Part shown: piece by piece, positions 3,446-40,674 of the stretch | How positions within the stretch are numbered: the first letter of the stretch is position 1 | Layout: each line of letters opens with the position of its first letter | Source of the DNA: a virus | Taxonomy: Duplodnaviria > Caudoviricetes | IMG/VR virus record: IMGVR_UViG_3300032334_001433 | Location: 128,001 to 192,000 of that record | DNA length: 64,000 nt | Strand: one strand, 5' to 3' | The notes under the pieces: generated by a model | Told to the model about the DNA's origin: nothing | Databases searched by the model: none | Seen by the model: the letters and a program-made list of their open reading frames with translations, nothing else | Translations under genes and position numbers: made by a program

Positions 3446-4155
3446 ATATACAGACATTTATTTTCAATTGGCGCGGACAATATGAAAAGACAAAAGAAAA
3501 GCAAAAGCAACTGAGTGCCATTGGGGTCGTGCCTGTCGTTATTAATAGTGACGACAATCACCGTGAGGACGATCCTAATTGGCACAACATTGGCGAGGAA
3601 AGTTATTTCACTGCACAGTTCTTAAAAGCATTGGAATTATTTACTGGCGATGTAATGTTTCACATACAAGCGGATGCATCATATAGTAATTGGGCAGAAA
3701 TTTATCAAGGAGCAAGAGATTGCTTTGATACTTACAATTGGGGAATTTATGCACCAAATGTGGATTATACATTTTATAATTCTGCAAGAACTGATCTTAC
3801 AAGTTTTGATTTAGATGAACCTAATTTAAAAATGGTTGCAAATACAGATTGTACTTGTTGGTTTATTCATAAAGATATTCTTGAAGATGCAAAAAATAGA
3901 AATATAAATTTTGCGCCATATAAAATGGGTTGGAGTTTTGATATAATTTTTACCGCAATTAGTTATATTAATAAACGACCAGTCATTCGAGATTATTCAT
4001 TTACTATTGACCATCCGCAAGGAACCAATTATAATAAAGATCAGGCCGAGATTGAGATGGTTCAACTATATCAATCACTTACACCCGATGTACAAGAAGC
4101 ATTTAGATATATTAAAGGCGATAAAGAAAAATTAGCGCAATACTATGCAAATTGA
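3442..4155 (+). CDS. Hypothetical protein, probable glycosyltransferase
   Basis: Cluster context; GT-A-like layout with IQAD. Confidence 0.5.
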   Translation: MNIQTFIFNWRGQYEKTKEKQKQLSAIGVVPVVINSDDNHREDDPNWHNIGEESYFTAQFLKALELFTGDVMFHIQADASYSNWAEIYQGARDCFDTYNWGIYAPNVDYTFYNSARTDLTSFDLDEPNLKMVANTDCTCWFIHKDILEDAKNRNINFAPYKMGWSFDIIFTAISYINKRPVIRDYSFTIDHPQGTNYNKDQAEIEMVQLYQSLTPDVQEAFRYIKGDKEKLAQYYAN

Positions 4156-37405: not shown

Positions 37406-37434
37406 TTGACAAGGTGTCAAGAGTGTGCTATAAT
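37406..37434 (+). promoter_or_regulatory. sigma70-type promoter of the tRNA array
   Basis: TTGACA-17-TATAAT. Confidence 0.85.
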
Positions 37435-37507: not shown

Positions 37508-37581
37508 GTTCGGTTAGCTCAATAGTAGAGCATACGACTGATAATCGTAAGACAGAGGAGCGTTACCTCTACCGAATACCA
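37508..37581 (+). tRNA. tRNA-Ile(GAT)
   Basis: Cloverleaf, CCA; atypical T-loop AGCGTTA. Confidence 0.85.
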
Positions 37582-37586
37582 TATGT

Positions 37587-37662
37587 GTCCTGTTCATCTA
37601 GCGGCCTAGGATAGTACCCTTTCACGGTATTCACACGGGTTCAAATCCCGTACAGGACTCCA
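37587..37662 (+). tRNA. tRNA-Glu(TTC)
   Basis: Cloverleaf, CCA. Confidence 0.9.
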
Positions 37663-37890
37663 TATTAAAATGTATTAGGTTACCAACCCAGTAGGTGATC
37701 TAGGAGAGGATTAATCTGTGGCCGCACAGACTCTGCCTAGACACATGAAAGATAGAGATCGACTTTGAATTGATCTTGGCGTCGCGCTGGAGTAAGTTGG
37801 ATGGTAATGTGAATGACGACCAGTCGCATGACGAATGCGTGGTTAGTCCCAGTGGGATTGTTGTCGGACATCCTAGTACATTTTAATATG
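37661..37890 (+). ncRNA. Unassigned ~230-nt structured RNA inside the tRNA array
   Basis: 19-bp closing inverted repeat and several internal hairpins; no ORF. Confidence 0.6.
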
Positions 37891-37897
37891 GATATAT

Positions 37898-37973
37898 GTG
37901 CGCGTGACCCGAACGGTTAGGGAGCGGATTGCAAATCCGTATCATGCAGGTTCGACTCCTGTCGCGCACTCCA
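37898..37973 (+). tRNA. tRNA-Cys(GCA)
   Basis: Cloverleaf, U73, CCA. Confidence 0.9.
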
Positions 37974-38043
37974 AGTGATGATTTAGATGTTAAACTGAAT
38001 GCGCTAGCAAACGTCCAATCAGGTGCGAAGCCTGTCCTAATTT

Positions 38044-38119
38044 GGTCTTAAAGTGTTCATGGACGCACGACGGCTTGTCACGCCGTAAGAGCGGGGATCG
38101 TTACCCCCTAAGACCGCCA
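38044..38119 (+). tRNA. tRNA-Asp(GTC)
   Basis: Cloverleaf, G73, CCA; atypical T-loop ATCGTTA. Confidence 0.85.
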
Positions 38120-38858: not shown

Positions 38859-39128
38859 ATGAACTATATCCCATTGCAGAACAAAGTTCTGGTCATTGAG
38901 AATGAAAAGAAAAAAGTTACAGATAGCGGAATCTATTTAGGTGAAGCTAATGGAGACAGCAATACTCGAGCAGGTACAGTTCTTGCTATTGGGCCGGATG
39001 TTAAAGAAGTAAAGGTTGGAGATATTGTTTATCCTATGTGGACAAAATCAAAAGTAGTTAAAGACGGAGACTTGTATATTGGAATTATATCTGAAGAAGA
39101 TATTCTTGCAGTTGTAGAAGCTGAATAA
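38859..39128 (+). CDS. groES: GroES/Cpn10 co-chaperonin embedded in the tRNA array
   Basis: PLQNKVLV, SGIYL, GTVLAIGP, VKVGD, SEEDILAVV. Confidence 0.92.
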   Translation: MNYIPLQNKVLVIENEKKKVTDSGIYLGEANGDSNTRAGTVLAIGPDVKEVKVGDIVYPMWTKSKVVKDGDLYIGIISEEDILAVVEAE

Positions 39129-39421: not shown

Positions 39422-39436
39422 TAAAACTTTTTAGGT

Positions 39437-39509
39437 GTGGCCTTAGTGTTAGCGGTTAGCACCTCGGATTGTGATTCCGATAGGATGGATTCGAATTCCA
39501 TAGGCCACC
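39437..39509 (+). tRNA. tRNA-His(GTG) without encoded G-1 or complete CCA
   Basis: GTGGCCT/AGGCCAC acceptor stem, C73; flanked by an inverted repeat. Confidence 0.85.
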
Positions 39510-39526
39510 CCTAAAAAGTTTTTATT

Positions 39527-40191: not shown

Positions 40192-40674
40192 ATGAGAAAG
40201 ATAAATATTGCTGAAGTAAAAGCTTTTATTGAAGCTCAAAGTCTAGAAACCAAAATTTACATTGGTGCGGATTCTGAAAGATATAAACGCGACGGTAAAT
40301 GGTATGCAGATTATACTCTCGCAATTGTAGTTCACATCGATGGACGACATGGTTGTAAGATTTTTGGTGAAGTACAAACTGAGATTGACTATGATTCTAA
40401 GGCTCAAAGGCCTTCGATGCGTCTAATGACAGAAGTGCACAAAGTTGCAGATTTGTATCACTTGATAGAAGATTGCATTGGAGAACGGGAAGTTGAAATC
40501 CATTTGGATATTAACCCTGATCTAAGGCATAACAGTTCTATAGTGATTCAACAAGCAGTTGGTTATATCAAAGGTACTTGTAATGTTGTACCAATGGTTA
40601 AGCCAAACGCATTTGCGGCTTCTTATTGTGCAGACCGTTTGAAGGAAATTTTAGCATATCAACAAGCAGCATAA
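40192..40674 (+). CDS. RNase H-like YkuK (DUF458) family protein
   Basis: KIYIGADS, RLMTEV, EIHLDIN, KPNAFAASYCAD. Confidence 0.8.
   Translation: MRKINIAEVKAFIEAQSLETKIYIGADSERYKRDGKWYADYTLAIVVHIDGRHGCKIFGEVQTEIDYDSKAQRPSMRLMTEVHKVADLYHLIEDCIGEREVEIHLDINPDLRHNSSIVIQQAVGYIKGTCNVVPMVKPNAFAASYCADRLKEILAYQQAA

Follow-up and report, generated by a model that had tools for sequence, protein, structure and literature searches.

The window analysed here is a stretch of 64,000 nucleotides (bases 128001-192000) from the complete IMG/VR genome of an uncultured T4-like lake phage, which is 202,665 bp long and has direct terminal repeats. The gp41-type helicase of this phage is 60-66% identical to its homologues in T4-like cyanophages (Kyanoviridae), and psbA is absent from the genome. 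A sigma-70-type promoter heads a run of 23 tRNA genes (Table 1), and no terminator-like site was found between this promoter and position 40400. The genes for tRNA-Glu and tRNA-Cys in this run are separated by an intergenic gap of 235 nt, which holds the element studied here: positions 37659-37892 are the gene for a structured noncoding RNA of about 230 nt, a member of a family that we call family A. The RNA lies on the same strand as the tRNAs, in the order Ile-Glu-A-Cys, and is single-copy in the phage's own genome (107.9 bits, E 1e-26, with R1, a covariance model of the 136-position core). The initial annotation of this DNA had placed an RNA of about 230 nt inside the tRNA array; its transcription together with the tRNAs is supported by the promoter and the terminator-free stretch up to 40400. 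Its statements that the element contains no ORF and is neither a tRNA nor a tmRNA also stand: only chance ORFs of at most 44 aa overlap it, and ARAGORN and Rfam call nothing in 37663-37897.

Other features of the array are recorded here in their own right. A 21-nt inverted repeat (39423-39443 and 39502-39522) brackets tRNA-His and adds about 11 bp of leader-trailer pairing to its acceptor stem, a feature possibly relevant to the special G-1 processing of this tRNA. The tRNA-Asp(GUC) at 38044-38119 is called by ARAGORN but falls below the Rfam tRNA gathering score; its T loop is GAUCGUUAC, as opposed to the usual GUUCRANYC, and the same form occurs in a related locus (L093). Between tRNA-Val and tRNA-Arg lies a GroES-like co-chaperonin ORF (phrog_3188, E 6e-15; 38859-39128), and this position within the array is kept in relatives. 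Just 3' of the array, at 40192-40674, is a PF04308 RNaseH_like (DUF458) gene. Relatives of its protein were confirmed at 425 IMG/VR stretches, and most of the 80 loci examined adjoin tRNA genes; the protein is a candidate tRNA-operon-linked nuclease.

Table 1. Family A RNA of the window and its flanking operon features.
Feature	Position	Strand	Remarks
sigma-70-type promoter of tRNA operon	37406..37434	+	TTGACA-17-TATAAT, 12/12
tRNA-Glu(UUC)	37587..37662	+	CCA encoded at 37660-37662
P1 stalk, 5' arm	37659..37679	+	outer end is tRNA-Glu discriminator and CCA
136-position core	37678-37811	+	
5' strands of P2a, P2b and P3	37680..37692	+	UUA, CCAAC, CCAGU
P4 long hairpin	37695..37744	+	
P4a	37695-37704/37736-37744		
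P4b	37705-37708/37731-37734		
P4c	37715-37720/37725-37730		
P4 tetraloop	37721-37724	+	GCCG
J4/5 junction	37745..37750	+	AUGAAA
P5 hairpin	37751..37783	+	
P5a	37751-37753/37781-37783		GAU/GUC
P5b	37755-37762/37770-37777		
3' strands of P3, P2b, P2a and GUAAUGUG	37786..37811	+	
P3, 3' partner	37786-37790	+	
P2b, 3' partner	37796-37800	+	
P2a, 3' partner	37805-37807	+	
GUAAUGUG	37804-37811	+	near-invariant
3' domain	37815..37865	+	second three-way junction
P6	37815-37820/37860-37865		
P7 hairpin	37821-37842		
P7 pentaloop	37830-37834	+	GACGA
P8 hairpin	37846-37858		
P1 stalk, 3' arm	37872..37892	+	
tRNA-Cys(GCA)	37898..37973	+	next operon gene

Fold of the window copy

The window copy folds with a minimum free energy of -79.8 kcal/mol (z = -4.74), and none of 200 dinucleotide shuffles folds as well. 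Since the reverse strand folds about equally well, stability alone does not give the strand. The closing stem, first described as 19 bp, is real and slightly longer: the two arms of P1, 37659-37679 and 37872-37892, form 21 bp with one U-G pair. The outermost bases of the 5' arm are thus the discriminator and CCA of tRNA-Glu (37659-37662). The interior stems that had been drawn from the letters are also present and keep their pairing in homologues through compensatory changes; these are CTAGG/CCTAG around TCTGTG-GCCG-CACAGA, AGATC/GATCT, and GACGAC/GTTGTC with CGCAT-GACGA-ATGCG and GTCCC-AGT-GGGAT. One stem had to be redrawn: TTACCA/TGGTAA can form in the window copy, but the family supports a register of TTA/TAA plus CCAAC/GTTGG. 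With GCCG on P4 and a short P8, whose loop is AGU, the window copy belongs to a minority subtype.

Members of the family

The closest relative, L002 (86.6% identity), has the element too, and P1, P4 and P8 keep their pairing there by compensatory changes. A distant copy in another spacer, Cys|Asp, of other relatives was found by nhmmer. Using three blocks common to the first copies (CCAGTAGGT, GAAAGA and CGCTGGA) as a motif scan, we recovered 68 stretches from IMG/VR, including 1 coding false positive, and at least 120 from JGI/ENA metagenomes, some of them marine and one a TARA scaffold. The same scan of 185,579 prokaryote genomes (596 Gb) gave 44 matches, about the number estimated for chance, and the core model rejected all 44. 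The model confirmed 65 of 66 viral loci and, among the matches listed, 80 of 114 metagenome loci. After removal of duplicates, there are at least 96 distinct members among the matches listed, from uncultured aquatic phage contigs and metagenomes; family A belongs to uncultured aquatic T4-like (Kyanoviridae-related) phages. In one metagenome contig (L245), two copies lie about 180 nt apart, at 428-565 and 748-878.

An Rfam search, which the initial annotation had named as a check, matched no family to the RNA: with the 4227 models of Rfam 15, run at the gathering score and at E <= 10, the flanking tRNAs were the only hits in 37560-38000. They likewise hit only tRNAs in a typical member (L133), which also carries module B (see below), and in the spacers of L004 and L005. 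Neither the window copy nor a consensus-like copy had a blastn match among 50,697 GenBank phage records, and the core model found no member in T4 or in the four cultured Kyanoviridae nearest by gp41, while the positive control on the phage's own genome responded. Family A has escaped description because no cultured phage carries it. We found no description of it in the full-text literature, although a 2023 catalogue of about 8,500 candidate RNAs from IMG/VR (PMC10690425) may overlap with it. Of the 79 loci taken from related tRNA arrays, family A is carried only by the window and by four other loci; this patchiness indicates that the RNA is dispensable.

Covariation, strand and conserved parts

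RNAalifold predicted 48 pairs on 43 full-length members, 30 of them with compensatory changes; for P1, 10 of the 12 pairs predicted on A2 show such changes. In the core, scored on a hand-drawn structure, 94.8% of the cells are paired in the MAFFT alignment and 95.8% in the model-fitted one, and this pairing falls to 26-39% when the partners are slid by 1-3 columns. Both sides change in 20 of 35 core pairs (MAFFT) or 21 of 35 (model-fitted), and none of 500 shuffles reached the observed core values. P5b and the 3' domain were aligned by subtype only. The covariation that had been suggested as a check of the RNA is, on both counts, strong.

P1 is AU-rich and 17-24 bp long (median 22) in the family, and where a tRNA precedes family A, it starts at the CCA of that tRNA. 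Over 91 members its pairs are 1721 Watson-Crick, 170 G-U and 10 A-C; this 17:1 ratio of G-U to A-C identifies the tRNA strand as the functional one. Covariation of the tRNA discriminator with the base after UGG is weak because the pair is mostly A-U and the base is nearly always U. Inside the stalk, P2a is UUA/UAA in the family, 4 of the 5 pairs of P2b covary, P3 (CCAGU/GCUGG) is invariant in all members, and 16-17 of the 19 pairs of P4 covary. The first three-way junction contains J3/4, an invariant AG, and J4/5, which reads AYGAAA or AAGAAA with the GAAA invariant. The P4 arm has an asymmetric internal loop. Of 59 distinct cores, 48 cap this arm with a GACG tetraloop and 11 with GCCG, and the pair that closes the loop covaries. 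The length of P5b is variable, and in most members this helix ends in a GNRA loop. In the 3' domain P6 and P7 covary, and the P7 pentaloop is GACGG in 64, GACGA in 18 and GACGU in 1 of 83. Most members also have a hairpin with a T-loop-like GUUCAAAA loop, which the window copy lacks.

Family A has a conserved, covarying two-domain fold with two three-way junctions, and we regard it as almost certainly a real functional RNA family. The invariant unpaired bases (the AG of J3/4, the GAAA and GUAAUGUG), together with the GNRA-capped P5b, point to a tertiary fold. Mutual information recovered the known helices only, with no inter-domain pseudoknot or loop-loop contact; since the GACG loops are invariant, covariation cannot test their contacts.

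Genomic setting

Among the matches listed, 49 of 96 members directly follow tRNA-Glu(UUC), 18 directly precede it and 19 precede tRNA-Asp, so that 86 of the 96 abut one of these two tRNAs. The other arrangements include Glu-A-B-Tyr, Gln-A-Glu, Ile-A-Glu, promoter-A-Asp and promoter-A-Glu. In all of them, family A stands at the head of the tRNA operon, and since the arrangements differ while this position does not, the link with Glu and Asp may be positional and not functional. The same core is kept whether the flanking tRNA is Glu, Gln, Ile or none. Copies of the L004 type have a TTGACA-17-TATAAT promoter of their own, and so has L156, with no tRNA within 1.6 kb; in L093 the order is promoter, A, then Asp-Glu-Tyr. 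Where no tRNA precedes the RNA, a 14-bp hairpin was seen upstream of it (L093:4322-4357; also L095, L111, L097 and L101). The 3' arm of this hairpin (ACUAUA) shares bases with the 5' arm of P1, so that the two structures are in competition for them; the hairpin could be a switch, or a stalk without cargo that has an arm in common with P1.

Stalks without family A and with other cargos

In relatives that lack family A, the corresponding site is occupied by a hairpin of 13-18 bp, which starts from the CCA of tRNA-Glu and shows compensatory changes; the one in L021 resembles the window stalk with the interior cleanly missing. Equivalent stalks also hold other cargos, namely module B and, in L035, a 75-nt insert. 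The stalk has the RNase III-type length of about two turns in the window and at the family median. The initial annotation had the RNA released by processing of the flanking tRNAs. This would be incomplete alone: the conserved stalk of about 20 bp would itself seem to be a processing element, since it persists as an empty hairpin in relatives without the family A RNA. RNase III, the CCA-adding enzyme and RtcB are not encoded by the phage, so that host enzymes must do the processing.

Two further elements were seen in these arrays. Module B is a second structured RNA family of about 150 nt with its own AU-rich stalk of about 19 bp (L133:7031-7180; L002:3757-3909; L004:350-500). It carries UAUCARGGUAUCGU as a motif, together with a GACG-capped hairpin that covaries, and occurs as about 40 distinct copies in 69 loci, often directly 3' of family A (Glu-A-B-Tyr). 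Module C is a third conserved RNA-like element, located in Cys|Asp spacers (L005:337-597; L023:2916-3180; L051:2363-2617) with the motif GGACAGRGUAAC.RCUCA; some of its 18 distinct copies stand behind their own sigma-70 promoter. Neither module has an Rfam match.

Comparison with known RNAs

The nearest analogues by position are rnaC and rnaD of T4 (species 1, 139 nt, and species 2, 119 nt, in the annotation of NC_000866). Like family A, they are noncoding and structured, lie on the tRNA strand of a T4-type tRNA cluster and have no known role. T4 rnaC also folds far better than its shuffles (z -4.6) and has a canonical T arm (GGUUCGAAUCC), while rnaD folds weakly. Family A is larger than both, with its two three-way junctions and a stalk of about 20 bp. 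Neither the T4 tRNA region (L158) nor the complete T4 genome gave a match to the core model, so that rnaC and rnaD are analogues by position only; the suggestion of a stable RNA analogous to the T4 species thus holds for location and fails for homology.

In rRNA operons, each mature RNA is flanked by sequences that pair with one another over about 20 bp, forming the RNase III processing stalk. P1 is like these stalks, and like those of T7 and lambda transcripts, in being a flanking helix of about 20 bp; rRNA-operon stalks likewise share their transcript with tRNAs, the E. coli rrnB transcript carrying 16S, tRNA-Glu, 23S and 5S. Unlike them, P1 takes in the CCA of the preceding tRNA and encloses a cargo of about 190 nt, with no rRNA. 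We also considered mimicry of the 23S GTPase centre (H42-44), which was suggested by the shared words GCCAG...GAAAG...UCAC.CUGG, and rejected it. Run on E. coli rrnB with filters off, the core model gave no match at 23S nt 1051-1108 (locus 3692-3749), its best matches lay elsewhere at E >= 0.08, and it found no similarity of family A to rrnB.

Phage copies of Y RNAs occur near tRNAs. In YrlA (Y RNA-like, RF02553), the 5' and 3' ends form a long stem, as in family A, and the T-loop-like hairpin of most family A members resembles that of Y RNA-like RNAs, although its loop is not conserved as UUC. A Y RNA identity was nevertheless rejected. The element has no RF02553 match at E <= 10, the Ro60/TROVE domain (PF05731) is absent from the 202,665-bp genome in a search whose controls responded, and the window copy has no YrlA-like T arm, the AGU of P8 not being a T loop.

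The large structured RNAs GOLLD, ROOL and raiA of phages and metagenomes (bioRxiv 10.1101/2024.12.08.627333) are multi-junction folds often found beside phage tRNA genes. Like family A, they are complex, were discovered by comparative analysis and have no known function. Family A matches none of them in Rfam, at 230 nt is much smaller than GOLLD and ROOL (about 600-800 nt), and gives no sign of multimer-forming contacts in its mutual information. Taken together, family A is a new family among the stable structured RNAs of phage tRNA clusters.

Discussion

We propose a scheme to which we give about an even chance: family A is a stable RNA that would be cut from the tRNA precursor at its stalk and act in trans, probably by binding a partner. 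The operon transcript would be cut at the AU-rich stalk of about 20 bp, most likely by the host's double-strand-specific RNase III, and RNase P at tRNA-Cys and 3' trimming at tRNA-Glu would complete the release. The freed RNA would be compact and two-domained, its ends clamped by what remains of the stalk, and could then act in trans. The stalk appears to be a processing and stabilising device because it survives without cargo, encloses different cargos and has the length of an RNase III substrate; excision of a stable RNA through it is on the whole probable, with RNase III, by analogy with rRNA operons, a candidate for the cleavage. The cargo, in turn, would be the part that functions in trans, since it persists beside other flanking tRNAs or beside none, and conservation falls mainly on unpaired bases of its junctions and loops.

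As for the partner, a GACG/GCCG-type loop is carried on two hairpins, held by the two rigid three-way junctions, and many relatives have a third such loop on the neighbouring module B. This repetition of one loop type is compatible with a protein that recognises it, and hence with a decoy or sponge, one of the roles suggested in the initial annotation. Family A may then bind such a protein, and the bound factor might belong to tRNA or translation metabolism or to host defence. We put forward the protein decoy or sponge only tentatively: a ligand pocket or a catalytic core would account for the invariant junctions no less well than a protein site. To our knowledge, few new structured RNA classes of more than 200 nt combine a multi-junction fold with invariant unpaired bases, and those we know of have usually proved to be ribozymes, riboswitch-like sensors or RNP cores.

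An alternative is a ligand-binding or catalytic function. The 5' domain is built like a riboswitch or ribozyme: it has a closing helix, two hairpin arms and invariant junction nucleotides, and one arm carries a GNRA loop while the other has an asymmetric internal loop. The junction would be the pocket or active site, and the RNA might be either a ribozyme or an aptamer that, as a free sponge, takes up a small molecule such as a host signalling nucleotide. Its transcription from strong early-type promoters and the lack of an expression platform or terminator 3' of the RNA would agree with this. However, no riboswitch or ribozyme family of Rfam 15 matches at E <= 10, a candidate ligand or cleavage site is wanting, and the junction lies about 20 bp from the tRNA ends, so that the RNA is no self-cleaver trimming the tRNAs; we regard this explanation as unlikely. 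We judge about equally unlikely that the element acts only in cis, stalk and cargo folding the precursor into units and directing the 3' maturation of tRNA-Glu and the 5' maturation of the next tRNA, with the excised piece as waste. The pairing of the upstream tRNA's NCCA into P1, the stalk-only hairpins kept at the same site in relatives and the predominance of members abutting tRNA-Glu or tRNA-Asp would all agree with this. Yet a bare hairpin is evidently enough in those relatives, so the 190-nt interior is unneeded for processing, and within it the junction bases are invariant, one arm is capped by a GNRA loop and two loops are conserved. Moreover, the L156 copy has its own promoter and no tRNA nearby, and the core does not change with the flanking tRNAs.

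The nearly constant neighbourhood of tRNA-Glu or tRNA-Asp could also mean that the RNA binds these tRNAs through their anticodon regions, holding or shielding them: GAAAG of J4/5 is complementary to CUUUC of tRNA-Glu (32-36), and the GACGR loop to YUGUC of tRNA-Asp. This complementarity exists in the sequences, but position 32 of both tRNAs is C or U while the motifs of the RNA are fixed, and the fifth loop base does not track position 32 of tRNA-Asp. Such anticodon pairing was rejected for want of covariation; matches of 3-5 bp are expected by chance, and a shared gene order at the array head can explain the adjacency. We consider this role very improbable. Finally, the 21-nt terminal inverted repeats, and the presence or absence of the element among close relatives with clean borders at the repeat, could suggest a DNA-level element, either a MITE-like insertion or a cruciform signal. 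We think this scarcely credible, and it is already largely refuted: the element is single-copy in the 202,665-bp genome, there is no target-site duplication at its borders, its outer arms are not conserved but vary from locus to locus with covariation, its interior helices covary too, and the excess of G-U over A-C pairs fits only an RNA of the tRNA strand.

Family A has about 100 distinct members, covaries clearly and occurs in a defined genomic setting, which makes it ready for biochemistry. It is possible, though we would not presume it, that the tRNA operons of aquatic T4-like phages launch at least three RNA families (A, B and C), each delivered within an excision stalk of about 20 bp, of which family A would be a new trans-acting class: a protein decoy, ligand sponge or ribozyme that manipulates host translation or tRNA-directed defence. 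The findings bear on the 50-year-old question of why stable RNAs other than tRNAs are retained in the tRNA clusters of T4-type phages, and they suggest that the stalk is a general cassette through which tRNA operons express RNAs.
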